A stretch of 64,000 nucleotides of DNA, taken from positions 4,081-68,080 of the forward strand of contig JBBAFH010000003.1 of NCBI GenBank assembly GCA_041655535.1. The letters run 5' to 3'. This stretch comes from Bacilli bacterium. GTDB taxonomy: Bacteria; Bacillota_I; Bacilli_A; RF39; UBA660. Made by a program: the position numbers and the translations under genes. Below the pieces are notes generated by a model that saw only the letters and a list, made by a program, of their open reading frames with translations, did not search any database and was not told the DNA's origin. Shown in pieces: positions 8,701 to 49,192 of this stretch; position 1 is the first letter of the stretch; every line of letters begins with the position of its first letter.

Positions 8701-8913
8701 CTAAACAAGTGCAGTTTTAATTTCTATAACATTTTTTGCTTGTAATCCCTTGTCAGTTCTTACTAGTTCGAACTCAACATATTGTCCTTCGACTAGAGTT
8801 TTATAGCCAGACGACAGGATTGCAGAATAGTGAACAAAGATGTCTTCTTCATCGCTATGTTCAATAAATCCAAAGCCTTTATCGTTATTAAACCATTTAA
8901 CTTTACCTCTCAC
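8701..8913 (-). CDS. Cold-shock protein (CspA family)
   Basis: GTG start with SD AAGGGAGAG. Contains [15 protein letters not shown] and the VHYSAI RNP motifs. 70 aa. Confidence 0.95.
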
Positions 8914-9160
8914 AAATAAACTCTCCCTTCTAGTATCATTACATTTTAAATATACCCTCTATGAATGCAATAATCAATAAAATGGGAAAGTCAAATTCCG
9001 ACATTTTTTTAGTTATTGCGAAAATGGATTTGTTATATAATCAAAAGATCCCGACAAAAAATATTTTACTCGTTTTTAATTTTTTTTAAATATCAAATGC
9101 TCGAAATGCCCACTTTTACGTTCAAAATGCATTTTTGATGTTTTTTTAGGACCCTTTTTT

Positions 9161-9196
9161 GCATTTGAGACACATAATCGGCCATTTGGGACATAA
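9161..9196 (+). promoter_or_regulatory. LytTR-type direct-repeat operator upstream of agrBD
   Basis: GCATTTGAGACAcataatcgGCCATTTGGGACATAA. The 9-mers GCATTTGAG and CCATTTGGG are separated by 12 bp (21-bp register) and lie immediately upstream of the putative -35. The same block recurs at 46247-46282 on the minus strand. Confidence 0.65.
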
Positions 9197-9199
9197 AAC

Positions 9200-9228
9200 A
9201 TTACAGATTAAATTTTATATGATATAAT
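9200..9228 (+). promoter_or_regulatory. Putative sigma-A promoter of agrBD
   Basis: -35 TTACAG (9200-9205), 17-bp spacer, -10 TATAAT (9223-9228). SD GAGGTG at 9234-9239. Confidence 0.5.
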
Positions 9229-9246: not shown

Positions 9247-9870
9247 TTGTTGAAAAATCAAGTTTTAAATACTTTATTAAACTTTATTAAAAAACATTAT
9301 CCAAACTATACTAAACAACAAATGTTAACTATTAAATATGGATTAGAGGGAATTTATATAACAATTACTAAAACCATTATAATATTCCTAATAGCTATAT
9401 ATTTAAATTTATTTGTAGATCTTATAATTTTAATGTTATTTTATACTTTATTAAGAATGTTTTCATTTGGATTACACGCTAATAATAGTCTAGTATGCCT
9501 AGTTGCATCATCTACTCTATTTATAGGAGCAACTTACTTATGTACAATATTAACTATTAATTTACAAATCAAATTAATTTTAGCAGTTATATCAATTATA
9601 TTTTTTTATAAATATTCACCCGCTGATACTACGAAAAAACCAATCAATAATATTAAAAGAAGAAATAATTATAAATTACTATCAACAATTACTGCGATAA
9701 CTTATAGTTTTATTATAGTTTTTTCAAATAATCATTTTATTGCAAATACTCTACTATTTTCATTAGTTATTCAATCTTTTTTAACAACACCTTTGGCATA
9801 TAAACTTTTTAATCAGCAATATAATAATTACTTGCAATATAAAAAAGGAAAGGAGGTTGGTTGTGATTAA
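9247..9870 (+). CDS. agrB: AgrB-family propeptide-processing membrane endopeptidase
   Basis: TTG start. 207 aa and polytopic. Conserved R..S.G.HA.....C signature (LLRMFSFGLHANNSLVC). Immediately followed by an AgrD-like peptide gene. Confidence 0.85.
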   Translation: MLKNQVLNTLLNFIKKHYPNYTKQQMLTIKYGLEGIYITITKTIIIFLIAIYLNLFVDLIILMLFYTLLRMFSFGLHANNSLVCLVASSTLFIGATYLCTILTINLQIKLILAVISIIFFYKYSPADTTKKPINNIKRRNNYKLLSTITAITYSFIIVFSNNHFIANTLLFSLVIQSFLTTPLAYKLFNQQYNNYLQYKKGKEVGCD

Positions 9871-9985
9871 ATTTTTAGCTTTGGCTTTAAGTTCACTGGC
9901 TTATGTTGCTGCTAATACATTCACAACTGCTTGCATGTTTCTGTGGTTAGACGAACCAGAAACACCAGATTTCTTAATAAAATAA
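9863..9985 (+). CDS. agrD: AgrD-like autoinducing peptide precursor (40 aa)
   Basis: Not in the ORF track (too short). GTG start 6 nt after SD AAGGAGG (9850-9856), overlapping the agrB end by 8 nt. Translation is MIKFLALALSSLAYVAANTFTTACMFLWLDEPETPDFLIK: an amphipathic leader, a single Cys, then an acidic EP..P tail as in known AgrD peptides. Confidence 0.8.
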   Translation: MIKFLALALSSLAYVAANTFTTACMFLWLDEPETPDFLIK

Positions 9986-9994
9986 GAAATAAAA

Positions 9995-10020
9995 AAAATG
10001 TAGGAATATTTCTACATTTT
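9995..10020. terminator. Bidirectional terminator between the convergent agrD and kinase genes
   Basis: Stem AAAATGTAG (9995-10003) pairs with CTACATTTT (10012-10020). It is flanked by an A-run on the left and a T-run on the right. Confidence 0.6.
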
Positions 10021-11304
10021 TATTTTAATTTTTTGTTTAAATACATCTCTAACAAATTCCCTTTCAATCGAAATTCGTTCGTCTTTATCAATTATTATTT
10101 TGACTAAGCTTAATCCGTATCCCCGACCTTTACCTTTACTAGAATACCCTTCATCATCCATTCTTTCTAAATCAATCGAACCTTGAAAGTTATTAGAAAC
10201 ACAAAAATAGAAATCATTTCCTTCTTTATATAAATAAATACCAATTGCTTTCATTTTTAAATCTTCAATCGCTTCAATAGCATTATCAATTATAATGCCA
10301 GCAATTGCACATAAATTTTTATTTAACTCAAAATCAAAATTCTTGTAACTATTAGAGTATATATTTTTGCTAATTTCTAAATTACAACTAATTCCCTTTT
10401 CCTTCATAATTAACATTTTTTGGTATATTAATCCTTGAAATCCACCAGAAGGAAGGCGTTTTGTTTTAGTTAGAATTTCATCATCATCTTTTTCCTTTAA
10501 ATTAATAATTTCATCAATATGATTAATAATGTCACTGTTTTTTTTAGGTATCATTCCTTTTAGAACAATAAAGTTGTTTTTGTTTTCATGATTAGTTCTT
10601 CGATATTTTTCAAGAATTTTTTCATATTCTGTTAAATCATTAATTAATTTATTATATTCTTTTTTTAAATTGCTATGGTAATTTTTTTCCAAACTTATGT
10701 TTATTACTAGAAAAGTAATAATAATTATTAGAATTACACTTAAAATCATCGCTAATAAAACATCAAGTTTAAAATACATATAATAAAAGAAAACGGAATA
10801 GATCAACACAATAAGCGCTAAAATAGGAAGAATTTCAAAAACACCTTGACTCCTTCTGTTTTCAGTCACACTTCCAAAAAAATGAACGATCTGTTTTACA
10901 TTAATTAAAATAATCATTATCAATGCAATAAGTATATTAAGCCAAAATCGTCCAAGAAAAGCTTCACTTAAAGTCGTTGGTTCTATCTTTAACAACATAA
11001 CTAAAATAATAGCAACTATTATTTCGGAAACGGTTATTAAAACAAATACAAAAAAACTTCCAATAATGACATTAATAATTTTTTTCTTGAAGTATAATTT
11101 ATTTAATATTATTAACACTATATAATTTATTAAAACACGTATATAATGTTTTGTTGCTATAAACAATATTGTCATTAGAATTGTATTAATAAGTACAACC
11201 AACCAAAATTCTGTTTTTTTATAGTCAATTTGTTCTTTAAAGATTCTAGAGGATACATAAAAACATGCTAATGAAATTATAAAACTACTTAATAAATAAG
11301 TCAT
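10012..11304 (-). CDS. agrC: AgrC/ComD-like (HPK10) membrane sensor histidine kinase
   Basis: 430 aa. About 6-7 N-terminal TM helices, the H-box RRTNHENKNNFIVLKGM, and a C-terminal ATPase motif GYSSKGKGRGYGLSLV. Overlaps the upstream regulator gene by 4 nt. Confidence 0.85.
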   Translation of the reverse strand: MTYLLSSFIISLACFYVSSRIFKEQIDYKKTEFWLVVLINTILMTILFIATKHYIRVLINYIVLIILNKLYFKKKIINVIIGSFFVFVLITVSEIIVAIILVMLLKIEPTTLSEAFLGRFWLNILIALIMIILINVKQIVHFFGSVTENRRSQGVFEILPILALIVLIYSVFFYYMYFKLDVLLAMILSVILIIIITFLVINISLEKNYHSNLKKEYNKLINDLTEYEKILEKYRRTNHENKNNFIVLKGMIPKKNSDIINHIDEIINLKEKDDDEILTKTKRLPSGGFQGLIYQKMLIMKEKGISCNLEISKNIYSNSYKNFDFELNKNLCAIAGIIIDNAIEAIEDLKMKAIGIYLYKEGNDFYFCVSNNFQGSIDLERMDDEGYSSKGKGRGYGLSLVKIIIDKDERISIEREFVRDVFKQKIKIKM

Positions 11305-12008
11305 AGCTTTGATACCTCTTTTTTATATTTAGGACTCAACCAATCTATCTCAACTCCAGTATCAAAAGTTATTTTTTTCTTAGCTAAATTGACAATTGAT
11401 ACTCTAGTAGAATTAATAATACATGACCGATGTGATTGGACAAATACATCACCTAACATTTCAGACATATCCATTAGTGTTTTATTTACACTAAGTTGTG
11501 AATAGTCAGTATTTATAATAACCTTTCGCTCGATACTATCTCTGGTTATATATAATATATCATTAATTGGTATGGTATATATAGCTCCTCTATCTTCAAA
11601 ACGAATTACTCCTTTTTTTCCTAAAACATCCAGAGCTTTAGAAATAGATTTACTTAAATGTTTAGGATAGTCATCATACTTATTTATAAAAGATAAAAAT
11701 AAAAATTCATTTTTTAAAATAGTATATCCCAGTTCATCGTGTGATGTTAAAAAGATAATAACGCTTTCAATATCAATTTTTCTAATTACTCGAGCTATAT
11801 CGATTCCTGAAGAAGATGGAGTTTCGATATCCAATATATATATTCTGAAAGGTAACTTTGAACGCATTAATTTCATAAAACTATTATCATAATCATCAAA
11901 CAAATGACATTGATATTCCATTTTGTTTTTTAACATTTCTTCATCAATAATAGAATTAATTTGATTTAAAATTTCTGCATTGTCATCACATACAACAAAA
12001 TTAACCAT
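11301..12008 (-). CDS. agrA: LytTR-family response regulator (AgrA-like)
   Basis: The start is most likely ATG at 12008 (MVNFVVCDDNAEIL, SD GAGGTG). The track ORF start at 12083 adds an implausible extension. Receiver domain plus a C-terminal LytTR domain (IYTIPINDILYITRD...VQSHRSCIINSTRV). Confidence 0.9.
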   Translation of the reverse strand: MVNFVVCDDNAEILNQINSIIDEEMLKNKMEYQCHLFDDYDNSFMKLMRSKLPFRIYILDIETPSSSGIDIARVIRKIDIESVIIFLTSHDELGYTILKNEFLFLSFINKYDDYPKHLSKSISKALDVLGKKGVIRFEDRGAIYTIPINDILYITRDSIERKVIINTDYSQLSVNKTLMDMSEMLGDVFVQSHRSCIINSTRVSIVNLAKKKITFDTGVEIDWLSPKYKKEVSKL

Positions 12009-12175: not shown

Positions 12176-12340
12176 TTATATAAAATCACGACGCGATTGA
12201 TTAAAAAGTGCAAAAATAACAAATATAATAATAATAATCCAAATTATGCCTAAACCACTTCCGCCATAACCTCCGCCGTAGCCACCGCCACAGTATGGAA
12301 TTGGTGGACAGCAACTACCAGGATATCCCCAAGTTCCCAT
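12176..12340 (-). CDS. Small Gly/Tyr/Cys-rich membrane-tailed protein (YjcZ-like tiny sporulation protein family)
   Basis: Not in the ORF track (54 aa). SD AAGGGGGG lies 6 nt before the ATG at 12340. Translation is MGTWGYPGSCCPPIPYCGGGYGGGYGGSGLGIIWIIIIIFVIFALFNQSRRDFI. Confidence 0.55.
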   Translation of the reverse strand: MGTWGYPGSCCPPIPYCGGGYGGGYGGSGLGIIWIIIIIFVIFALFNQSRRDFI

Positions 12341-12876: not shown

Positions 12877-12953
12877 TGGTGGAGAATAAGGGACTCGAAC
12901 CCTTGACCCCCTGCGTGCAAGGCAGGTGCTCTAGCCAACTGAGCTAATTCCCC
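12877..12953 (-). tRNA. tRNA-Ala(UGC)
   Basis: The reverse complement starts GGGGAATTAGCTCAG. Anticodon loop is CTTGCAC. It has the G3:U70 pair, a T-arm GGTTCGAGTCC and an encoded CCA. A hairpin plus T-run lies downstream at ~12822-12843. Confidence 0.95.
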
Positions 12954-13080
12954 AAAGAACATCATTACTAAATAATGACTAATATAGTATATCACTAAAA
13001 TTTCAAAAAAGTCAACATCTATTTTAAAAATCTATTAAATATAAGGGAATAAATCATATAAAAATCCCAATTAACTCAAC

Positions 13081-13752
13081 TTATATAAACAAACTAATTA
13101 TAAATATTATACCTAATATCAAAGGTTGATGAATTAAATAAATCAATAAAGAATTTTTACTTACTGCAATTATAATTTTGTTCTTCGTGTATAAATTAAA
13201 TATACTTACTTTTTTGTAATAAAAAACTTTGTTAAAAACAATTCCAGCTATATATAGGGAAACATATGGAAATAATGGATAATAATCAACTGAAGCTTTT
13301 CCAAAAATATTATCAAAAAATTTAAATATTTCTATATTATATATAGGTGTGTTAATACCAAAACAAATCAAAAATATTAACATTAATAACCAATACGTAT
13401 TTAGTTTTTTTAAAATAGGATATAACATCATACATATACCTAGAAAATGCAATATACCAAATCTTACATATTGATTATTAAATATAATAAAAGTAATTAC
13501 GGAGACAATTAATCCAAAACTCAAAGTCACTATTCCCTTTTTAAATATATCCTTACTAAACCCGCTGTTTATTCCCGAAAGGATAATAAATAGTATTGCA
13601 GCCATTCGACCTAGAAAATACCAAAAACCTGACTCATAATTTACATTTAATCCGACAAATTCATTTAAATCATAAATCAGATGAAAAATAATCATTGAAG
13701 TAATGGCAATCAACTTTAAAATATCTATTTCAAAAATTCTTTTATTTTCCAT
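13081..13752 (-). CDS. Polytopic membrane protein, DUF1624/heparan-alpha-glucosaminide N-acetyltransferase-like
   Basis: 223 aa and highly hydrophobic. The N-terminal RIFEIDILKLIAITSMIIFHL motif is typical of that family. Confidence 0.6.
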   Translation of the reverse strand: MENKRIFEIDILKLIAITSMIIFHLIYDLNEFVGLNVNYESGFWYFLGRMAAILFIILSGINSGFSKDIFKKGIVTLSFGLIVSVITFIIFNNQYVRFGILHFLGICMMLYPILKKLNTYWLLMLIFLICFGINTPIYNIEIFKFFDNIFGKASVDYYPLFPYVSLYIAGIVFNKVFYYKKVSIFNLYTKNKIIIAVSKNSLLIYLIHQPLILGIIFIISLFI

Positions 13753-13828
13753 TCTTCACCTCAACATAATCTACGATTTATTAATATAAAAAGCACACAA
13801 ATTAATATCGTATGCTTTGTTGACTATA

Positions 13829-13905
13829 TGGTCGGGAAAACAGGATTTGAACCTGCAACCCCTTGGTCCCAAACCAAGTGCACTACCAAGTTGTGCTATT
13901 TCCCG
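13829..13905 (-). tRNA. tRNA-Pro(UGG)
   Basis: Reverse complement CGGGAAATAGC...; anticodon loop TTTGGGA; encoded CCA. Confidence 0.95.
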
Positions 13906-13908
13906 TTA

Positions 13909-13985
13909 TGGCGCGCCCGATAGGAGTCGAACCCATAACCTTTTGATCCGTAGTCAAACGATCTATCCAATTGATCTACGGGCGC
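13909..13985 (-). tRNA. tRNA-Arg(ACG)
   Basis: Reverse complement GCGCCCGTAGATCAATTGG...; anticodon loop CTACGGA; encoded CCA. Confidence 0.95.
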
Positions 13986-14004
13986 AAGATCGTCAATATT
14001 TAAA

Positions 14005-14080
<76 letters not shown>

Positions 14081-14083
14081 AAA

Positions 14084-14159
14084 TGGCGGTCCCGACGAGA
14101 ATTGAACTCGCGATCTTCTGCGTGACAGGCAGACGTGATAACCGCTACACCACGGGACC
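14084..14159 (-). tRNA. tRNA-Asp(GUC)
   Basis: Reverse complement GGTCCCGTGGTGTAGCGG...; anticodon loop CTGTCAC; encoded CCA. Confidence 0.95.
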
Positions 14160-14162
14160 ATA

Positions 14163-14239
<77 letters not shown>

Positions 14240-14258
14240 ATATTAATTTAAATAAAAT

Positions 14259-14349
14259 TGGCGGAGAAAGAGGGATTCGAACCCCCGCGCCGTTTCCGAC
14301 CTGCTGGTTTTCAAGACCAGTCCCTTCAACCAGACTTGGGTATTTCTCC
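14259..14349 (-). tRNA. tRNA-Ser(UGA)
   Basis: Reverse complement GGAGAAATACCCAAG...; anticodon loop CTTGAAA; long variable arm; encoded CCA. Confidence 0.95.
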
Positions 14350-14381
14350 ATATTTTATATAAATCACAAAAAAAATTTAAA

Positions 14382-14470
14382 TGGTGCCTAAGGCCGGAAT
14401 TGAACCGGCACGAGAGTTGAGTCTCGCAGGATTTTAAGTCCTGTGCGTCTACCTATTCCGCCACTCAGGC
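14382..14470 (-). tRNA. tRNA-Leu(UAA)
   Basis: Reverse complement GCCTGAGTGGCGGAA...; anticodon loop CTTAAAA; long variable arm; encoded CCA. Confidence 0.95.
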
Positions 14471-14479
14471 AAAAAAGAA

Positions 14480-14555
14480 TGGTGTCCCGTACAAGATTCG
14501 AACTTGTGACCCTTTGATTAAAAGTCAAATGCTCTACCAACTGAGCTAACGGGAC
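14480..14555 (-). tRNA. tRNA-Lys(UUU)
   Basis: Reverse complement GTCCCGTTAGCTCAGTTGG...; anticodon loop CTTTTAA; encoded CCA. Confidence 0.95.
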
Positions 14556-14567
14556 AAAAATTAAAAA

Positions 14568-14642
14568 TGGCTGCCTCGGCTAGATTCGAACTAGCGCATG
14601 CCACAGTCAAAGTGTGGTGCCTTACCGCTTGGCTACGAGGCA
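14568..14642 (-). tRNA. tRNA-Gln(UUG)
   Basis: Reverse complement TGCCTCGTAGCCAAGCGG...; anticodon loop CTTTGAC; encoded CCA. Confidence 0.93.
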
Positions 14643-14657
14643 ACATACCAACATAAA

Positions 14658-14741
14658 TGGTGGAGGGAGATGGATTTGAACCATCGAACCCGAAGGAACA
14701 GATTTACAGTCTGCCGCGTTTGGCCACTTCGCTATCCCTCC
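14658..14741 (-). tRNA. tRNA-Tyr(GUA)
   Basis: Reverse complement GGAGGGATAGCGAAGTGG...; anticodon loop CTGTAAA; long variable arm; encoded CCA. Confidence 0.95.
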
Positions 14742-14743
14742 AA

Positions 14744-14820
<77 letters not shown>

Positions 14821-14821
14821 A

Positions 14822-14898
14822 TGGTGGGCAATGTAGGACTCGAACCTACGACCCCCTGCTTGTAAGGCAGGTGCTCTAACCAACTGAGCTAATCACCC
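14822..14898 (-). tRNA. tRNA-Val(UAC)
   Basis: Reverse complement GGGTGATTAGCTCAGTTGG...; anticodon loop CTTACAA; encoded CCA. Confidence 0.95.
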
Positions 14899-15634: not shown

Positions 15635-16541
15635 TTTGTATTTTACTTATCCACTCGATATTTGGTATTGATATTACTTGTTTTAAATAAGTATATAGCT
15701 TGTTTAAAAACAACTCATAATCGCTTATTTTATGAATGATTTTCAATATTTCTTTTTCAGAAAGTTGATTGTGAACAATTAATTCAAAAACATCAAAATA
15801 AAATGTCGGAAATAACATTCTTGCATATAATAACAAACAATCAGTTTCATTTAAATTGTTAGAAGTAATATAATCAATGACATCATAGGTTATGTTATCG
15901 CCATCAAAGAAACGGCTTTTAAAATATTCACATATATCTCTTGTCTTACTATCAATGATAAAGTTTAAGGGGTTATACAAATCAAAAAGAGTATCATCCT
16001 TTTTTATTCGCCCATGTGATAGAGATAAAGATTTATTATTAGTATTGATGTTTTTAAGAAAACTTATACCCGTTTCAGTCATTCCGACAAAATAACTAAA
16101 ACTTTCTCGAAGCAATGGGAAGGTTTTTCCAAATTGACTAACTTGATATTCGAAAAAATCAATTTTCTCAATCCATAAGTATAACCATTTGTCTCTTCTT
16201 AATGAATTTTCAGATGCGTTCATACTTATGTTAGAAAACCAAATCAAATCATCATAAGTTATATTACGGGAATCCGTTATATATATAAATAACAAAATAT
16301 AGGGAATGTTATTTATTAATGTTACTTTTAATGAGTTATTATTCAAAACTATTTGATGACAGTATATTCCTTGTGATAGTAAAGATGTACTTAAAGAATA
16401 CAAATCATTAATTTCCTTTTCAGTGCGGTAACATGGTAGAAAAATATATTTTTTATTTCCTATATTAAATTTAAAATTTTTATCCTGTTGGTGAATATTA
16501 TCCGGTTCAAGATTGTAAAAATAGTTAATTGTATTTTTCAT
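15618..16541 (-). CDS. Hypothetical protein, possibly a YutH/CotS-family kinase-like spore coat protein
   Basis: 307-aa ORF. The assignment rests mainly on context (NifU/YutI-like and YutG-like neighbours, as at the B. subtilis yut locus) and on its general length and composition. No catalytic motif was verified. Confidence 0.4.
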   Translation of the reverse strand: MKNTINYFYNLEPDNIHQQDKNFKFNIGNKKYIFLPCYRTEKEINDLYSLSTSLLSQGIYCHQIVLNNNSLKVTLINNIPYILLFIYITDSRNITYDDLIWFSNISMNASENSLRRDKWLYLWIEKIDFFEYQVSQFGKTFPLLRESFSYFVGMTETGISFLKNINTNNKSLSLSHGRIKKDDTLFDLYNPLNFIIDSKTRDICEYFKSRFFDGDNITYDVIDYITSNNLNETDCLLLYARMLFPTFYFDVFELIVHNQLSEKEILKIIHKISDYELFLNKLYTYLKQVISIPNIEWISKIQTTQHL

Positions 16542-16598
16542 ATATTCACCTCAACTAATTTTATGATTTTATTACTATTTTATGATTGGAGGATTAAT

Positions 16599-17084
16599 AT
16601 GAATAATTTAAAAGAAAGTGCCATAAAAAAATTAAACAATCGAGGGGTTGAAATAATTGATATTGCAGAGATTGTTTATGATTTACAAAAAAAATATTTA
16701 GCAACTTTAACGATGGATGATTGTGTTAAATCTGTTTGTGCAGTAATAGAAAAAAGAGAAGTGGTCCATGCTATTTTAACTGGTATTGCTATTGACGAAG
16801 CAGCCGAAAAAAATCTCCTTGATGAGGAAATTAATGACATAATTAAAAAAGATGACTCACTATACGGTATTGATGAAATTTTACCACTTAGTATAGTTAA
16901 TGTTCATGGATCAATTGCTTTTACTAATTTTGGACATTTAGATAAATTAAAACCTGGTATCATCGGTAAATTAGATAAACTAGGTGAAGAAATGAAACAA
17001 TGTCATACCTTTTTGGATGATATTATATGTGCAATTGCTTCTTCAGCCGCTAGTCGTCTAGCACATAAAAATAGAATTGATTAA
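16599..17084 (+). CDS. Phosphatidylglycerophosphatase A-family protein (YutG-like)
   Basis: Start is ATG at 16599 after SD TGGAGGA. The track start at 16488 is rejected. REVVHAILTGIAIDEAAEK...LYGIDEILPLSIVNVHGSIAFTNFG..DKLKPGI...CHTFLDDIICAIASSAASRLAH closely parallels B. subtilis YutG. Confidence 0.85.
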   Translation: MNNLKESAIKKLNNRGVEIIDIAEIVYDLQKKYLATLTMDDCVKSVCAVIEKREVVHAILTGIAIDEAAEKNLLDEEINDIIKKDDSLYGIDEILPLSIVNVHGSIAFTNFGHLDKLKPGIIGKLDKLGEEMKQCHTFLDDIICAIASSAASRLAHKNRID

Positions 17085-26721: not shown

Positions 26722-26945
26722 AAAAAATCACATCCTATTTAAGGACGTGATTACGCGGTACCACCTTAATTTATAAAAATTATACACTCAAAGTTTTAAC
26801 GCTAGCTAGCGGTTTAGCCTACATATCGACTAAACAATTCCGGAACCATTCTAAATACTTTGTTACCTTTGCTTTCACCAAGCGCAAAGTCTCTAAAGAA
26901 ACGACAGTATTTTTCTTTCCTTCAACATCTTTAAACAATAATTAG
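26722..26945 (-). promoter_or_regulatory. T-box riboswitch leader, probable Met specifier, preceding dut-metG
   Basis: Read on the minus strand: an extended -10 TGCTATAAT (~26950-26958), an AG bulge AGAGA, a distal loop TGGTGAAAG, AGTA...AGAATGG (candidate AUG specifier), and the T-box sequence AAGGTGGTACCGCG (~26753-26766). A terminator ATCACGTCC/GGATGTGAT plus T-run follows (~26722-26752). Confidence 0.8.
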
Positions 26946-26967: not shown

Positions 26968-27501
26968 TTATTGTTCAAGATATTTACCCAAAAACTGTGA
27001 AGCAATCTTGACAACTTTTTCATCCGTATGGTTTAATTCCTCATCGTTTGAGGTCATTATTACTAAACCTATTGCGTCACCATTAGCAATTATAGTACTT
27101 ATTGCATAGGTTCCTAATTCATTTTTACCATTAATTAATTCATATTCTTTAGGATATTTTTCTAATATATTTTCTCTTCTCATTATTGAAATTTCTAATT
27201 TTTCACTTATAGGTTTATTTAAATAATCCTTTTTATTTAGTCCTGCTACTGCTATAATATCTTTCGTATCGGTTATAATAATATTGTTTTTAATAAAACT
27301 ATGCATTGAATCAACAAATTTTTGAGAAAAATCATTTATATTTTTCATTAGTGAATATTTTTTCAAAATTATTTTATCTTCACCTTCTATATATATTTCT
27401 ATATTATCGTTATTATTTATTCTTAATGTTTTCCTAATTTCTTTTGGAATAACAATTCTACCCATCTCGTCAATTCGTCTTACAATACCTATACTTTTCA
27501 T
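26968..27501 (-). CDS. spoVT: Stage V sporulation protein T (AbrB-type N-terminal domain plus GAF-like C-terminal domain)
   Basis: 177 aa. Contains GIVRRIDEMGRIVIPKEIRKTLRI. The length and its position next to mfd match SpoVT. Confidence 0.85.
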   Translation of the reverse strand: MKSIGIVRRIDEMGRIVIPKEIRKTLRINNNDNIEIYIEGEDKIILKKYSLMKNINDFSQKFVDSMHSFIKNNIIITDTKDIIAVAGLNKKDYLNKPISEKLEISIMRRENILEKYPKEYELINGKNELGTYAISTIIANGDAIGLVIMTSNDEELNHTDEKVVKIASQFLGKYLEQ

Positions 27502-39764: not shown

Positions 39765-39795
39765 AATACACCCCTTATATAATAACACAAAAAAA

Positions 39796-39868
39796 GACAC
39801 ACACATATAGGGAATCTTAAGGCTGCTATTTTCCAATCCTGACCTGGTTCAATTATATATGTTGTGTC
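39796..39868 (-). ncRNA. ffs: Short (4.5S-type) signal recognition particle RNA
   Basis: The reverse complement reads GACACAACATATATAATTGAACCAGGTCAGGATTGGAAAATAGCAGCCTTAAGATTCCCTATATGTGTGTGTC followed by TTTTTTT. It is a long hairpin with the conserved domain IV elements CAGGUCAGG...GGAA tetraloop...AGCAGCC. Confidence 0.7.
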
Positions 39869-39916
39869 AATTAAGATAATATAATATTTAATTTAAAAAA
39901 GCAATTTTATTTAAAA

Positions 39917-40081: not shown

Positions 40082-42532
40082 TTAAATATCTTCTTTTGTT
40101 TCTTCAACAATATTTTCTTCTTCATTTATCACAATAGCGATTGAACTAACTTTTTGATCTTCTTTAAGATTGATTAATCTAACTCCTTGTGCAATTCTAC
40201 CTATCCTTGAAACTTGATTTAATGATAGTCTTATAACTGTACCAAAATTAGTTACCATTAATAAATCTTCATTTCCATCCACAAGTTTAAAAGCAATTAA
40301 ATTTCCGTTTTTTTCAGTTATGTTAAGAGCTTTAACACCTTTTGTACCACGGTGTGTTACTCTATATTCATTTATATCAGTTTTCTTGCCGTAACCCTTT
40401 TCAGTTACAATTAATACTTCTTGATCATCCGTTGCTATTTCACAACCAATACATTTGCTTTTTCCTACGTTTATACCTCTAACACCGCTAGCGGTTCTGC
40501 CCATAATTCTTATTTCTGATTCATTAAATCTAATCATTCTTCCATCAGTTGTAGCAATCATTATATCGTTATTTCCATTAGTTTTTTTAACTGATATTAA
40601 TTCATCATCTTCTTTAAGTGTTATTGCTAATTTTCCTGTTACTCTTATACTTTCAAATTCTGAAATTTTAGTTCTTTTTATTAAACCATTTTGTGTACAA
40701 AATACAACATTGTGGTCTTTATCTTCTTCAGTAACACGTAACAGAACATTAACTTTTTCATCTTTATCTAATGGTAATAGATTAATTATTGGTAAACCTT
40801 TTGATTGTCTATTAAATATTGGAATCGTATAACCTTTAATTCTATATACTTTTCCTTTATTAGTAAAGAATGTTATATAATCATGTGTTGTCATAACCAA
40901 TAAATGTTCAACAATATCTTCTTCGTTAATTGACATGCCTTTTATACCTACTCCACCTCTATTTTGAGTACGATAAGTTTCACTGTTAATTCTTTTTATG
41001 TAACCTTTATCAGTTAATGTCACAACTATATCTTCAACTGGTATTAAAGACTCATCTTCTATATATTCAATTGATGTCATGTCAATGTTAGTCTTTCTGT
41101 CATCTCCATACTTAGTCTTTATTTCAAGTAACTCTTCTCTTACAATATTGAGAATTTTTTCGTTACTAGATAATATTTCTCTTAAGTTTTCAATCAAAGC
41201 CAATAATTCTTTTAATTCTGATTCTATTTTTTCTCTTTCTAAACCAGTTAATCTTCTTAATTTCATTTCTAAAATTGCTTCAGATTGTAACTGACTTAAT
41301 TGAAATTTTTGAATTAATTTTTCAATTGCTTCAGTATCAGAGTTTGCTGCTTTAATTATTCTAATAATCTCATCTATGTTATCAAGAGCAATTCCTAATC
41401 CTTCTAGTATATGTGCTCTTTTTTCTGCTTTCTCTAGATCAAATTTTGTTCTTCTAATAATTACTGCTTTTTGATGTTCAATATATTTTTCAATTATTGT
41501 TTTTAAACCAAGCAGTTTTGGTTCTCCATCTACTAAAGCCAATAAATTTATTCCATAAGAAATTTGTAAATTTGTATATTTAAATAAGTTATTCAATATA
41601 ACGTTAGCGTTAGCATCTCTTCTTACTTCTATTACTATTTTTATTCCTTTTAAATCTGTCTCGTCTCTTAAATCAGTTATACCTTCTATTACTTTTTCAC
41701 GAGCTAAATCGGCAATTTTTGTGATTAATGACGACTTATTAACTTGATATGGGATTTCTGTAATTACAATACTTTGCTTTCCGTTTTTATTTTCAACGAT
41801 TTCAGAAGATGCTCTGATGGTAATTATTCCCTTCCCGGTATCATATGCCTTTTTTATTCCACTATTACCAAGAATATGAGCGCCTGTTGGAAAATCAGGT
41901 CCTTTAATATAATCCATCAACTCAAGTGTTGTAATATCGTTATTATCGATGTATGCAACACACCCATCTATTACTTCTCTTAAATTATGAGGTGGAATAT
42001 TGGTTGCCATACCAACTGCTATTCCCATTGTACCGTTTACTAATATATTAGGAAAACGACTTGGTAAAACACTTGGTTCTTTCCTTTCACCATCATAGTT
42101 AATACCAAAATCAACAGTATCTTTGTTTATATCTCTTAACATTTCCATAGAAATTTTAGCAAGTTTTGATTCTGTATAACGCTGTGCAGCAGCCGAATAA
42201 CCATCAATAGAACCAAAGTTACCATGTCCATCAACTAAAACATAACGATAGTTAAATGGTTGAGCCATTCTAACCATAGTGTCATATACTGCTGTATCCC
42301 CGTGAGGGTGATAATGTGCTAAAACATTACCAACAGTGTTTGCACTCTTAACAAATTTCTTTTCTGGTAAGAATCCTTCTTCATACATTGTGTATAAAAT
42401 ACGTCTATGTACTGGTTTTAGACCATCACGAACATCAGGTAATGCTCTAGATACAATAACACTCATCGAATAGTCAAGAAACGATCCTTCCATCTCATCT
42501 GAAATATTAATATCTTTTAATTTTTCATCCAT
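40082..42532 (-). CDS. gyrA: DNA gyrase subunit A
   Basis: 816 aa. Contains [16 protein letters not shown], the catalytic AAQRYTE, and a C-terminal beta-pinwheel. Confidence 0.97.
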
Positions 42533-45686: not shown

Positions 45687-45714
45687 AGTAAAAAAAAGCG
45701 TAATTAACGCTTTT
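45687..45714 (-). terminator. Rho-independent terminator after comK
   Basis: Minus strand reads AAAAGCGT-taatt-ACGCTTTT followed by TTTTAC. An extended -10 (TGTGATATAAT, minus strand) for recF follows. Confidence 0.6.
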
Positions 45715-46162
45715 ATTTGTTTTTTCTCTGTCTCAATATTGATTCAAGCCTTGAAGCTCTCAAAACTTGATTTTCAAAAGAAGAATATGAGATAGGAATT
45801 TCTAATGATGTTCCATTTTTAAAGTAAATAATAGTATTATTTTTTTCTTTCTCATAATGAGAAACTTTATTCAATGAGAACCATGAGCATTCAGACGAAC
45901 GTGCTGATCCTGTTGGAAAGAAAATTATTTCTCTACTCTCTTCAATTATTATAGGGGATTTGTATATTGTTCCACCTAAAAAGTGTTTGCTGCCCTCAAA
46001 TCTGCCTAAATAAGAACTTCCGAAATAACGACAACTATCATCAATAATTTTTGGAGTTACACGTTCTACGATAAAACTACCATCATCTTCGATAATTTTA
46101 CTTTTTTGATTATCAAGTGCAATTATTGCAATAGTTGATAAATTAATTTCATATTTTTCCAC
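45713..46162 (-). CDS. comK: Competence transcription factor ComK
   Basis: YEINLSTIAII, SCRYFGSSYLGRFEGS, IIFFPTGSARSSECSW and LEIPISYSSFENQVLRASRL align with B. subtilis ComK (SCRFFGSSYAGRKAGT, IFLFPTLSS...CGW, LPISYNSFENQVYRTAWL). The likely start is GTG at 46162, 8 nt after AGGAGG. The track start at 46171 overlaps that SD. Confidence 0.85.
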   Translation of the reverse strand: MEKYEINLSTIAIIALDNQKSKIIEDDGSFIVERVTPKIIDDSCRYFGSSYLGRFEGSKHFLGGTIYKSPIIIEESREIIFFPTGSARSSECSWFSLNKVSHYEKEKNNTIIYFKNGTSLEIPISYSSFENQVLRASRLESILRQRKNK

Positions 46163-46246
46163 TAATTTCACCTCCTACTAATATAATTCGACAAATAAAT
46201 CGAATTTCCTTCCTATCATATAATATTTTTTTTTGTTTTTGGGCAA

Positions 46247-46282
46247 TTATGTCCCAAATGGCCGAATCTATGTCTCAAATGC
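46247..46282 (-). promoter_or_regulatory. LytTR-type direct-repeat operator upstream of comK (a copy of the agrBD operator)
   Basis: Minus strand reads GCATTTGAGACAtagattcgGCCATTTGGGACATAA, which is 33/36 identical to 9161-9196 with the same order, 21-bp register and orientation relative to the downstream gene. A candidate -35 TTGCCC, 17-bp spacer and -10 TTATAT follow. Confidence 0.6.
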
Positions 46283-46291
46283 AAATATAGG

Positions 46292-46320
46292 CATAAAAAA
46301 ACAACTAAAAAAGTTGTTTC
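46292..46320 (-). terminator. Rho-independent terminator after dnaN
   Basis: Minus strand reads AAACAACT-ttttt-AGTTGTTT followed by TTTTTTA. Confidence 0.65.
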
Positions 46321-46326
46321 AGACAC

Positions 46327-47454
46327 TTAATAGGTCCTTATAGGTAAAATCAATTGTGTTAAAGAATTATCATTTATGTTTTTTATTATGATCGGTTTTA
46401 ATTCTCCATTTAATAAAATTTCTATATATTCATCTTCCATTGATTTTAATGCATCAAGCATATATTTTGAAGAAAATGAAATAATAATATTATTTTCATT
46501 ATTTTTTTCAACTATTATTTTTTCTTCCACCTTACCTATTTCAGGAATATTTGAGGAAATTGTTACATCGTTTTCCTTTAATTCCAATTTTATTGTATGT
46601 TTTTCAAATTCATTTGTTAATAAAGAAGCTCTATCAATAGAATTATAAAAGTCATTTCTTTGAACTTTCAATTTTAATGTAAAATCATTTGGTATAAGTG
46701 CAGAAGTATTGGGATATGTCCCATTTATTAAACGAGACATGAATATAATATCCGAAAATTTAAAAATAATGTTATTACTAAATATGTGTAATTCTATAAA
46801 ATCATCATCATCGGTTATTATTTTACTTAATTCCATTATATTTTTATTAGGAATGATAATATTTACCTCATTCGATAATTTTTCATCTAATTTAATTTCT
46901 TTTGAAGATAATCTATAAGAATCAGTTGCAGTACATTTTAATATATCTTCTTTTACTTGAATATTTAAACCAGTTAAATGTGGTCTTGCTTCATCATTAG
47001 ATGTTGCAAAAATAGTTTGATTAATTAAATTCTTTAAAACTCTTTTATTTAACTTAATAGGGTTTGATTGTTCTTCTAAATTTAATGTTGGAAAATCTTC
47101 TGTTTTATTACAATTTAAATAAAATGAAGATTTTGAAGTATATATGTTTATTTTATCTTCAATTACTTCTTCAATTGTTATTGTTTCATTTGGAAGCTTT
47201 CTAATTATTTCATATATATACTTACCATATACAACAATTACTCCTGTGTTAATAATTTTTGTGATTTGCTTACTAGGTATAAAAGTTTTAATTGCTATAT
47301 CATTATTAGTACTTAATAAATATAGTCCTTCATTCGTTAATTCTAATTTTATACAATTTAAGATTGGAATTAAGTTTTTACTTGATATACCTCTTATTAC
47401 ATAATTTAAGTGTTCTAGTAATATTTTTTGATTGATTTCAAAATTCATTTTCAT
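46327..47454 (-). CDS. dnaN: DNA polymerase III beta sliding clamp
   Basis: 375 aa with a three-domain clamp pattern (ATDSYRLS, LINGTYPN, LILPIRTY at the end). Located directly downstream of dnaA. Confidence 0.95.
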   Translation of the reverse strand: MKMNFEINQKILLEHLNYVIRGISSKNLIPILNCIKLELTNEGLYLLSTNNDIAIKTFIPSKQITKIINTGVIVVYGKYIYEIIRKLPNETITIEEVIEDKINIYTSKSSFYLNCNKTEDFPTLNLEEQSNPIKLNKRVLKNLINQTIFATSNDEARPHLTGLNIQVKEDILKCTATDSYRLSSKEIKLDEKLSNEVNIIIPNKNIMELSKIITDDDDFIELHIFSNNIIFKFSDIIFMSRLINGTYPNTSALIPNDFTLKLKVQRNDFYNSIDRASLLTNEFEKHTIKLELKENDVTISSNIPEIGKVEEKIIVEKNNENNIIISFSSKYMLDALKSMEDEYIEILLNGELKPIIIKNINDNSLTQLILPIRTY

Positions 47455-47460
47455 TCTCCT

Positions 47461-47594
47461 ATTCTTATTTTTTTAAGTAATATTATTATTATAGATGTGG
47501 ATTGTGTGGATAACTCTAATAAATACCATAATATAAAAGTAAAGCTAATAAAATTAATTGTGGAAAAATATATATTTTAAAAAGTTATTCACAA
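47461..47594. promoter_or_regulatory. oriC, dnaA-dnaN part: an AT-rich unwinding candidate plus a DnaA-box cluster
   Basis: AT-rich run at 47461-47494. Perfect DnaA box TGTGGATAA at 47505-47513. Variant boxes are TGTGGATTG (47496-47504), TGTGGAAAA (47559-47567) and TTATTCACA (47585-47593). Confidence 0.7.
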
Positions 47595-48947
47595 TTATTT
47601 TAAATCTCTAATAATTTTATTAATCTCTTTATCTAAATTTATATTATTTTTTAATTCTTTATTAATTTTATCAACTGAATGCATTACTGTAGTGTGATCT
47701 TTTCCACCAAACATAGATCCAATTTTAGCAAATGGTTCATTGTAAACAGTTCTGCAAATATACATAGCTATTTGTCTAGGAACCGCAATATTGGTAACTC
47801 TTCTTTTTCCTTTTAAATCCTCAATAGTAATATTATAAAGATTTGCTACAAGTTGTTGAACATGTTCAATATTGTTTTTAGCTGTAATACACTTACCAAA
47901 ATAATCCTTTAATGCTTCAACTGTTAAAGTTAAAGTAATGTCTGATCCACTCATCATAGCTGCATAAGCAACCACTCTTGTAATCGCCCCTTCTAATTTT
48001 CTAATATCACCAATACAGTTACTAGCAATATATTCTTTAACTTCCTGTGGGAAACTATTATTTAGTCCGTTTCCTTCTATTTTCTTTTCTATAATAGATA
48101 GTCTTAAATCAAAATCAGGTGGCATTATATCAACCATTAATCCCCAAGTAAATCTAGTTCTTAATCTATCTTCTAATTGTTTTAAATCATCTGGTGATCT
48201 ATCAGATGAAATAATTATTTGCTTATTGTTAGTATGAAGTTCATTAAATGTGTTGAAAAATTCCTGTTGTGTTTTATTTGCAACCTCTAAATATTGAATA
48301 TCATCAATCATAAGTACATCAATATCCCTATATTTTCTTTTAAAGTTTTCAACTTCATTTAAGTTATTATCATTCTTATTTTTTCTGTATAATTCTATAA
48401 AATCGTTAACAAATTGTTCACTAGTTACATATAAAACTTTTTTATTAGAATTACTTACAATGTAATTACCTATTGCATGCATTAAATGAGTTTTACCTAA
48501 ACCACTATTACTATAAATAAATAAAGGATTGTACATAATACCAGGTTTTTCTGCAACTGCTATAGCAGTTGTTTTAGCAAATCTATTGCTTTCTCCTACT
48601 ACAAAATTCTCAAATAAGTATTTTGGATTTAAATTAGAAGCAAAAGAATTTGTCGATTCTTCTTCAATGATTTCAATTTGTTCATCTTTTAGTTTTTCAA
48701 TCTCTTCTTCAGTAAAATAATCAAAAATAAAATTAGAACCTGTTACTTCATTGAATATATTTTCAATTAAAGTATTATAATTTTCTTTAAGATGTTTTTT
48801 GTGAATCAACATTGGTACTAAAACTGTGGCTTTATTTTCATGCAACGAAATTAATTTAGTATCAGCAAACCAAGCTTCATATAACATTGGTGCTAAATTA
48901 TTATTCATTTTTTTAAGAAAATTATCCCAAATATTGTTTATTTCCAT
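47595..48947 (-). CDS. dnaA: Chromosomal replication initiator DnaA
   Basis: Start is ATG at 48947 (MEINNIWDNF, SD TGAGGTG). Contains Walker A SNSGLGKTHLMHA, MIDDIQ, and the C-terminal DNA-binding motif GGKDHTTVMHS. The track start at 49058 adds a spurious extension across the DnaA boxes. Confidence 0.96.
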   Translation of the reverse strand: MEINNIWDNFLKKMNNNLAPMLYEAWFADTKLISLHENKATVLVPMLIHKKHLKENYNTLIENIFNEVTGSNFIFDYFTEEEIEKLKDEQIEIIEEESTNSFASNLNPKYLFENFVVGESNRFAKTTAIAVAEKPGIMYNPLFIYSNSGLGKTHLMHAIGNYIVSNSNKKVLYVTSEQFVNDFIELYRKNKNDNNLNEVENFKRKYRDIDVLMIDDIQYLEVANKTQQEFFNTFNELHTNNKQIIISSDRSPDDLKQLEDRLRTRFTWGLMVDIMPPDFDLRLSIIEKKIEGNGLNNSFPQEVKEYIASNCIGDIRKLEGAITRVVAYAAMMSGSDITLTLTVEALKDYFGKCITAKNNIEHVQQLVANLYNITIEDLKGKRRVTNIAVPRQIAMYICRTVYNEPFAKIGSMFGGKDHTTVMHSVDKINKELKNNINLDKEINKIIRDLK

Positions 48948-49192
48948 AAATGCGCACCTCACTTTATTAACTAAAATTATTTTACACCAAAAACACAAAA
49001 AAACCAAGTAAAATCGGCTTTTCCACAATGAAAACATCAAAAAACATTTGTTTTCCACATAATTGGGGATAACAAAAAAGAAATTAACAATTTAAATAGA
49101 AAAGTTTTCCACATAATTGGGGATAACTTAGTTCTTATAAGAAAACAAAGACTTAAAAAAAAATAGATATTAACAAAGTTGTGTGAATATTG
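48948..49192. promoter_or_regulatory. oriC, upstream-of-dnaA part: DnaA-box cluster with a duplicated composite element
   Basis: TTTTCCACA occurs at 49018-49026, 49050-49058 and 49104-49112. The 24-nt unit TTTTCCACAtaatTGGGGATAAC is duplicated at 49050-49073 and 49104-49127 (54-bp period). Each unit pairs two inverted box variants. TGTGAATAT lies at 49181-49189. Confidence 0.7.

Follow-up and report, generated by a model that had tools for sequence, protein, structure and literature searches.

The DNA analysed here, referred to as the window, is a stretch of 64,000 nucleotides from Bacilli bacterium GCA_041655535.1 (contig JBBAFH010000003.1; GTDB RF39; UBA660), in which the genes comK and agrB are preceded by the same two-part element of 36 nt. 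Both copies are predicted to be operators of the phosphorylated Agr-type LytTR regulator encoded at 11301-12008, which would put comK under direct quorum-sensing control, and the probability of this reading is estimated at about 0.7. The sequences and geometry of the element, its conservation, and the presence and integrity of the components of the system were established. An earlier note on this DNA had proposed that the agr regulator acts on agrBD and comK, and all parts of that proposal open to testing in silico held, so that it stands as a prediction from sequence.

The two-part element and the promoters behind it

Upstream of comK, the block lies on the minus strand (46282->46247, GCATTTGAGACAtagattcgGCCATTTGGGACATAA) and consists of a distal half-site CATTTGAGACA (46281->46271), a 10-nt spacer and a proximal half-site CATTTGGGACA (46260->46250), while the block upstream of agrB lies on the plus strand (9161-9196, GCATTTGAGACAcataatcgGCCATTTGGGACATAA) with the half-sites CATTTGAGACA at 9162-9172 and CATTTGGGACA at 9183-9193. 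When the sequences were re-read, the two blocks were identical at 33 of 36 positions, with all three mismatches in the spacer and both 11-nt half-sites identical, which confirmed what had been claimed for these blocks 37 kb apart. The pattern CATTTGRGACA-N10-CATTTGRGACA with ≤3 mismatches matched only at comK and agrB in the 64 kb, and gave 0.00 matches in 100 dinucleotide-preserving shuffles. The blocks had been described in the earlier note as 9-12-9 direct repeats (GCATTTGAG / CCATTTGGG), and this geometry holds for the element, but the extent of the repeat was set too short, the conserved unit being 11-12 nt (CATTTGRGACA), with 21 bp from the start of one copy to that of the next. The proposed fit to the ComE consensus was also borne out, the half-site agreeing with the ComE/LytTR 9-mer.

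With the clade half-site matrix, only three sites in the whole window scored above noise (random-window maxima: mean 16.6, 95th percentile 21.2), namely the comK and agrB blocks (33.5 each) and a divergent site in the agr region (23.0) that was absent from the matrix training set. The earlier note had listed the first two operators correctly and overlooked this third one, which is predicted on the minus strand (9129->9097; CATTTTGAACG 9129->9119, N10, CATTTCGAGCA 9108->9098), arranged back to back with the operator of agrBD at a distance of 32 nt. The divergent promoter behind it (TTTAAA-16-TAAAAT, 9063..9090, minus strand; -10 at 9068->9063) faces csp, encoding a cold-shock-domain protein (8701..8913, minus strand), which is the sole gene downstream, with no intervening terminator.

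At all three promoters of the window (agrBD, csp-facing and comK), the distance from the proximal half-site to the -10 element is exactly 29 nt. The agrBD promoter (9200..9228, plus strand) reads ATTACA-17-TATAAT with an extended TG, its -10 (9223-9228) being invariant in six genomes; the -35 of the divergent promoter is TTTAAA; and comK has a -10 TATGAT (46220->46215, minus strand) without a recognisable -35. A plausible -35/-10 pair had been announced for both blocks, of which the -10 elements were found, somewhat loosely placed in the original description, and the comK -35 was not: a consensus scan gave no sigma-70-like promoter for comK, and CCCAAA occupies the expected -35 place. A good -10 without a -35 is the layout expected for an activator-dependent promoter. 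The direct repeats of ~9 nt spaced ~12 nt apart, the 21-bp register, the position just 5' of a weak or absent -35 (start sites being predicted at ~7 nt after each -10) and the same motif at the cognate autoinducer promoter in six genomes are traits of LytTR operators and agree with the operator type assigned earlier, as far as sequence anatomy can tell. AgrA binds two direct repeats immediately 5' of P2 and P3, the core elements of which are suboptimal (PMC4227749), and ComE-dependent promoters, including that of the master regulator comX, have a pair of 9-bp repeats joined by a 12-mer linker (PMC4005675).

The comK gene itself (45713..46162, minus strand) encodes 149 aa and begins with GTG at 46162 behind the ribosome-binding site AGGAGG, not at 46171 as first given; gene calls on public contigs give the 149-aa product, and the 152-aa form is not on record. 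The protein matches PF06338 over its full length (E=1.3e-43; residues 5-150 on profile positions 2-151 of 152) and has 626 homologues. An intrinsic terminator 3' of comK (45694..45714, minus strand) makes the gene monocistronic, and a terminator-like hairpin after dnaN (46294..46325, minus strand; AAACAAC-N7-GTTGTTT and a T run), the stem of which is altered on both sides between species, insulates it from dnaN. Lying between terminators on both sides, comK needs its own promoter.

One way in which the proposal could have failed was that the block is a dispersed repeat. The window holds the agr and comK copies plus the one divergent agr-intergenic copy, and the strict pattern, run against 185,579 GTDB species genomes (a set without the window's own genome), gave 11 loci, the sole relative among them being a Bacilli metagenome-assembled genome (MAG; L010) with its match 5' of its comK. 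The remaining GTDB loci were 21-bp tandem arrays or coding-sequence matches, and a dispersed repeat was rejected. None of the 109 loci returned by a relaxed scan of JGI metagenomes came from a relative; practically all were chance matches or unrelated tandem arrays with a 21-bp unit.

Conservation of the element among relatives

Paired comK and agr loci were compared in six genomes (g1, the window; g2, JAQWBL01; g3, JAQVZH01; g4, a DUPI01 species; g5, CAZVQX01; g6, LFRM01), the pairing in g4 being confirmed by a 1.36-Mb contig common to both loci and by the accessions of neighbouring proteins; from L130 (JAAYMD01; GCA_012521575.1), the comK locus only was used. The order dnaA-dnaN-comK-recF-gyrB was found in every relative fetched, the agr locus is likewise syntenic (secA-hpf-csp-agrBD, convergent with agrCA), and every paired genome has, in addition to comK, an agr locus with an intact regulator.

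The conservation check suggested in the earlier note came out in favour of the element, since five more genomes retain the repeat 5' of comK: g2 (ComK identity 97%; half-sites CATTTGAGACA / CATTTGGGACA), g3 (86%; CATCTTAGACG / CTTTTCAAGCA), g4 (83%; TATTTAAGACA / TATTTTAGACA), g6 (81%; CATTTGAAGCT / CATTTAAGACA) and L130 (74%; AAATTTAGACA / CATTTAAGACA). In these relatives it lies 117 to 123 nt ahead of the start codon and 28-29 nt before TAT[G/T/C]AT, while spacer and flanks drift, and a loose consensus fitting all sites is [C/T]ATTT-N2-3-[A/G]ACA. The divergent repeat was found at the same position in g2 (25.5), g3 (26.3) and g6 (17.3), with a weak counterpart in g4 and g5, and the hexamer (G)TAAAAT/TATAAT of the divergent promoter is kept in six genomes.

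For cross-validation, a half-site matrix was derived from the agrB promoters only, with the tested genome omitted, and both strands of the whole comK locus were searched for pairs of half-sites at a distance of 20-22 bp, together with 300 composition-matched random loci. This agrB-only model, blind to comK promoters, predicts the comK site: it was the top match in five of the six paired genomes (g1, g2, g3, g4 and g6), the second in L130, and absent in g5. Locus-wide P values were 0 (g1), 0 (g2), 0.18 (g3), 0.007 (g4), 0 (g6) and 0.057 (L130), and with the window of the scan fixed to the 36 nt upstream of comK, P was <0.004 in g1, g2, g3, g4, g6 and L130. The comparison of genomes supports the view that the comK repeat is under selection. 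In g3, the proximal half-sites of agrB (CTTTTCGAGCA) and comK (CTTTTCAAGCA) share four derived changes relative to CATTTGGGACA of the window and match each other at 10/12 positions, as against 7/12 to the window, while the distal half-sites of g3 differ.

The agr locus, the proposed circuit and its alternatives

The components that the circuit would need are encoded together. On the plus strand, agrB (9247..9870; 207 aa; PF04647, E=1e-31) is followed by agrD (9857..9985; ~40 aa, ...TTACMFLWLDEPETPDFLIK; TIGR04223, 24.5 bits, cut-off 19), in which a Cys lies five residues ahead of the acidic tail (...TACMFLW|LDEPETP...), and a cyclic product is predicted, a thiolactone with the ring CMFLW and a tail such as FTTA. 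Convergent with agrBD, on the minus strand, are an AgrC-like histidine kinase (10012..11304; 430 aa, GHKL HATPase_c_5) and the AgrA-like response regulator (11301..12008; 235 aa; Response_reg with D60, and LytTR), the proposed binder of the three operators. An HPK10 kinase and a receiver-LytTR regulator with a phospho-acceptor Asp, as expected of an agr-type system, are thus both present; a single autoinduced agrBDCA operon with a divergent RNAIII is not, agrBD and agrCA being convergent.

The regulator is intact in six genomes, with D8, D9, D60, T88, K110 and the LytTR core HRSC..N invariant, and the solved structure closest to it in sequence is that of pneumococcal ComE (E=8e-6). The regulator has >1,000 homologues and lies on one contig with ComK in at least five genomes. 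The claim that it is the sole LytTR regulator of the window agrees with a scan of the open reading frames (ORFs) of ≥110 aa, all but 16488-17084 and 40455-40832, among which only this one was found. The AgrD core, compared between the window (9857-9985), L136, L139, L141, L145 and L149, is unusually well conserved across the clade, as ..AAN[G/T/S][F/I][S/T]TAC[M/V/I][F/I][L/F]W[L/M]DEP[E/K][T/M]P..LIK, while AgrB diverges to 47-78% identity. A split into pherotypes was considered and dropped, as the window and g2 do not differ in the mature AgrD region despite an AgrB identity of 75%, and the AgrD sequences carry no sign of pherotype diversification in the core.

In the proposed circuit, AgrB would process AgrD to a cyclic peptide, which the AgrC-like kinase would sense and answer by phosphorylating the regulator on D60. 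A regulator dimer would then bind in tandem to the pair of 11-nt half-sites, which have a 21-bp register and are centred near -57, and recruit RNA polymerase to promoters with a good -10 and a poor or absent -35. Its targets would be agrBD, giving autoinduction, the csp-facing divergent promoter, and comK, which, insulated by its flanking terminators, would be switched on directly by peptide quorum sensing. The identity of the binding protein, activation by its binding and the role of ComK as driver of competence in this organism are what we infer here.

Several observations weigh against direct control of comK by the agr regulator. In g5, the most distant pair (ComK identity 71%), no repeat is detectable upstream of comK (L133 2311-2500), where an extra segment of ~25 nt, GGTTGCAATTAGCTGCTTTTTTT, stands in its place, while its agr locus (L145) keeps a degenerate agrB repeat with a 20-bp register; the comK wiring would have been either lost in g5 or gained within the clade. 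The leave-one-out result for g3 was not significant locus-wide, as given above. The agrB sites of g4 (TATTTCGAACA / CTTTCGGAACA) differ in their centres from its comK sites (TATTTAAGACA / TATTTTAGACA), and whole-block similarity within g3 (20/33) is barely above between-genome values, so that co-variation of agrB and comK sites appears only partial and is clear at one half-site of one genome. No such site was found 5' of agrCA, even with a degenerate model, and positive feedback would therefore run via peptide production only. Late competence genes were not seen among the scanned ORFs of the window, for which reason the role of ComK in competence is assumed from family membership, and the 64-kb window leaves room for other LytTR regulators elsewhere in the genome.

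The last point leads to an alternative in which the blocks are LytTR operators bound by another LytTR regulator encoded elsewhere, for example a bacteriocin-type or orphan one, and comK answers another signal. The window represents 64 kb of a ~1.4-1.5 Mb genome, Firmicutes often have several LytTR regulators, and the half-site centres at agrB and comK differ in g4. This is nevertheless considered unlikely, since the comK and agrB sites hardly differ in either the window or g2 and one protein should bind both, since the adjacent AgrA is normally the cognate regulator of the agrBD promoter, and since 11301-12008, the only LytTR regulator found in the window, accompanies comK on its contig across the clade.

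The agr regulator is preferred to ComK as the binding protein mainly because of the back-to-back layout of the two agr-intergenic operators, which resembles P2/P3 of AgrA. If the repeats were ComK's own operator, ComK would autoregulate comK and control agrBD and csp, the arrow running from ComK to agr. As a rule, ComK of Bacillus regulates its own gene, a period of ~21 bp is also seen in type I K-boxes, and the short 149-aa ComK of this clade may differ in binding specificity. The half-sites, however, are repeated directly, lack the A4-N5-T4 dyad that marks K-boxes and fit the ComE/LytTR 9-mer, and an agrBD promoter without an AgrA site would be unusual. No K-box was obvious by eye upstream of comK. 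A site 5' of a missing -35, together with a back-to-back pair in the agr intergenic region, is typical of AgrA (PMC4227749), and control by ComK is accordingly held to be distinctly unlikely.

It is very unlikely that the agr regulator binds at comK with a neutral or repressive effect, the site being a recent copy of the agr promoter or serving the dnaN terminator or oriC. Recent copying could indeed account for an identity of 33/36, the dnaN terminator is overlapped by an inverted half-site, and oriC is 1-3 kb away; six genomes, however, with ComK identities as low as 74%, keep the site at its spacing from the -10, the position of the site at about -73 to -42 without a -35 is an activator layout, and the half-sites are unlike DnaA boxes. 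Chance resemblance or an assembly artefact, for which only the AT-rich background speaks, is refuted by the zero matches in shuffled sequence and by the recurrence of the sequence 5' of comK in independent assemblies (L001, L002) and in related species.

Relation to known systems and to the origin region

By its components, the system containing the preferred agr regulator is agr-type, with a different operon structure and comK added. As in S. aureus, the locus encodes AgrB, AgrD, an HPK10-type kinase and a LytTR regulator. Differing from S. aureus, agrBD and agrCA are convergent in the window and agrCA has no site, the half-site is CATTTGRGACA where that of S. aureus AgrA is ACAGTTAAG, comK is an extra target, and the second promoter faces csp with no recognisable RNAIII. 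S. aureus RNAIII encodes delta-toxin at the corresponding position; Rfam gave no RNA in the region of the divergent promoter, and either csp or a long leader RNA could be its quorum-sensing output. A 21-codon ORF downstream of the divergent promoter (8938-9003, minus strand) has no Shine-Dalgarno sequence and is probably untranslated. Common to both systems are, further, direct-repeat pairs with a register of ~21 bp, 5' of suboptimal promoters, two of the pairs being back to back (PMC4227749). The link between agr and competence in S. aureus is weak, contested and not shown at comK, with a modest effect of agrCA on comG expression in one study and none in another (PMC9072672; PMC10182052).

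The system works like the pneumococcal route from ComE to comX but is not a member of the ComCDE family, because its peptide genes are agrB and agrD. The signal in the window would be an AgrD peptide processed by AgrB, whereas ComC is a double-glycine peptide exported by ComAB, and the master regulator is the transcription factor ComK, whereas the pneumococcal one is the sigma factor ComX. Alike are the closeness of both circuits to the origin, which Slager and colleagues are said to have reported for pneumococcal ComCDE in 2014, and the regulator, the closest solved homologue of which is ComE. In pneumococcus, as predicted for the window, an HPK10 kinase and a LytTR regulator act on 9-12-9 repeats at the promoters of pheromone and master regulator (PMC4005675).

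With the ComQXPA route of B. subtilis, the window shares that peptide quorum sensing ends in ComK activity, as well as the Pfam family of ComK. There, the link to ComK is indirect and post-translational (ComA -> srfA/comS -> MecA/ClpCP), in contrast to the predicted LytTR operator on the comK promoter of the window, where comK lies, again in contrast, between dnaN and recF. ComA of B. subtilis is a NarL-type regulator, and the Bacillus comK promoter is governed by ComK, DegU, Rok, AbrB and CodY.

No description of direct Agr or LytTR control of comK was found in the literature, in agreement with the earlier statement that no system wired in this way has been described, and the direct wiring proposed, with its place beside the origin, would be a new variant; quorum sensing controlling competence is already familiar. 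Both model systems put competence under peptide quorum sensing, with ComE acting on comX in streptococci and ComA acting via ComS on ComK stability in Bacillus. If the wiring is as proposed, a LytTR/Agr regulator acting directly on the comK promoter would be a third, hybrid route and would show that evolution can recombine the signalling and master-regulator modules of competence circuits. Testing the prediction would be cheap, calling for a single regulator, a predictable peptide and the two sites of 36 bp, and in a low-GC lineage without a cultured member the circuit would offer a handle on the timing of DNA uptake by abundant digester bacteria.

The window covers the replication-origin region, where the GC skew flips sign near 48-49 kb and clusters of DnaA boxes flank dnaA. 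In the stretch 45713-49126, comK lies in the slot between dnaN and recF, 1-3 kb from oriC, and the agr locus is also origin-proximal, ~38-40 kb away. With comK beside the origin, replication-dependent gene dosage could conceivably feed into the circuit, by analogy with what has been proposed for pneumococcal comCDE. The most complete version of the proposal, a one-step circuit from the Agr peptide via the AgrA-like regulator to the comK promoter, joined by gene dosage from the origin and with csp as the output at the RNAIII position, is given even odds. DnaA boxes were also considered as the source of the repeats and rejected, the half-sites having no resemblance to them and the boxes clustering elsewhere.

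Between the -10 of comK and its ribosome-binding site, a second, highly conserved block (46172..46209, minus strand; GGAAATTCG-N9-GTCGAATTATATTAGTAGGAGG) contains the inverted repeat AATTCG/CGAATT. There are no compensatory pairs in it, L130 breaks four of the six pairs, with TCG changed to TAG in both copies, and the folding z is -1.4. An RNA hairpin or riboswitch in the comK leader was rejected for lack of covariation, of significant stability and of an Rfam family, and the block is probably a DNA site for a second, different regulator of comK.

The 5' part of the hairpin after dnaN is an inverted half-site, TGTTTCAGACA (46315-46325, plus strand), which is kept in relatives, and in L130 a full inverted repeat is present at ~2311-2344 on the minus strand (CATTTCGGACA-N10-TATTTAAAACA, score 23.8). 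Given this repeat of L130, comK, too, may have back-to-back operators.

Just 5' of the regulator gene and in the same orientation lies an ORF of 54 aa (12176-12340, minus strand; MGTWGYPGSCCPPIPYCGGGYGGGYGGSGLGIIWIIIIIFVIF...), the product of which has a Gly/Tyr/Cys/Pro-rich N-terminus, a hydrophobic tail and no Pfam match; a 50-aa counterpart is present in g2 (L136 6926-7078).

The MAGs in which ComK homologues were found are labelled Mollicutes or Bacilli bacterium, and many derive from biogas reactors. Further features of the window are a cluster of 13 tRNA genes (12880-14898), a T-box leader 5' of metS (26738-26934), a SpoVT homologue (26968-27501) and a small signal recognition particle RNA (39780-39878), and relatives have YutH spore-coat genes. 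Because of the SpoVT homologue in the window and the YutH genes in relatives, the lineage seems to be spore-forming, although some records label it Mollicutes.

In many unrelated genomes and metagenome contigs (L004, L022, L030, L048, L060 and others), tandem arrays with a 21-bp period were observed, the unit of which contains CATTTGGGAC or CATTTGAGAC; in Dorea phocaeensis (L004 530-640), the array is intergenic and consists of four copies of TCATTTGGGACACCTTGATTT.

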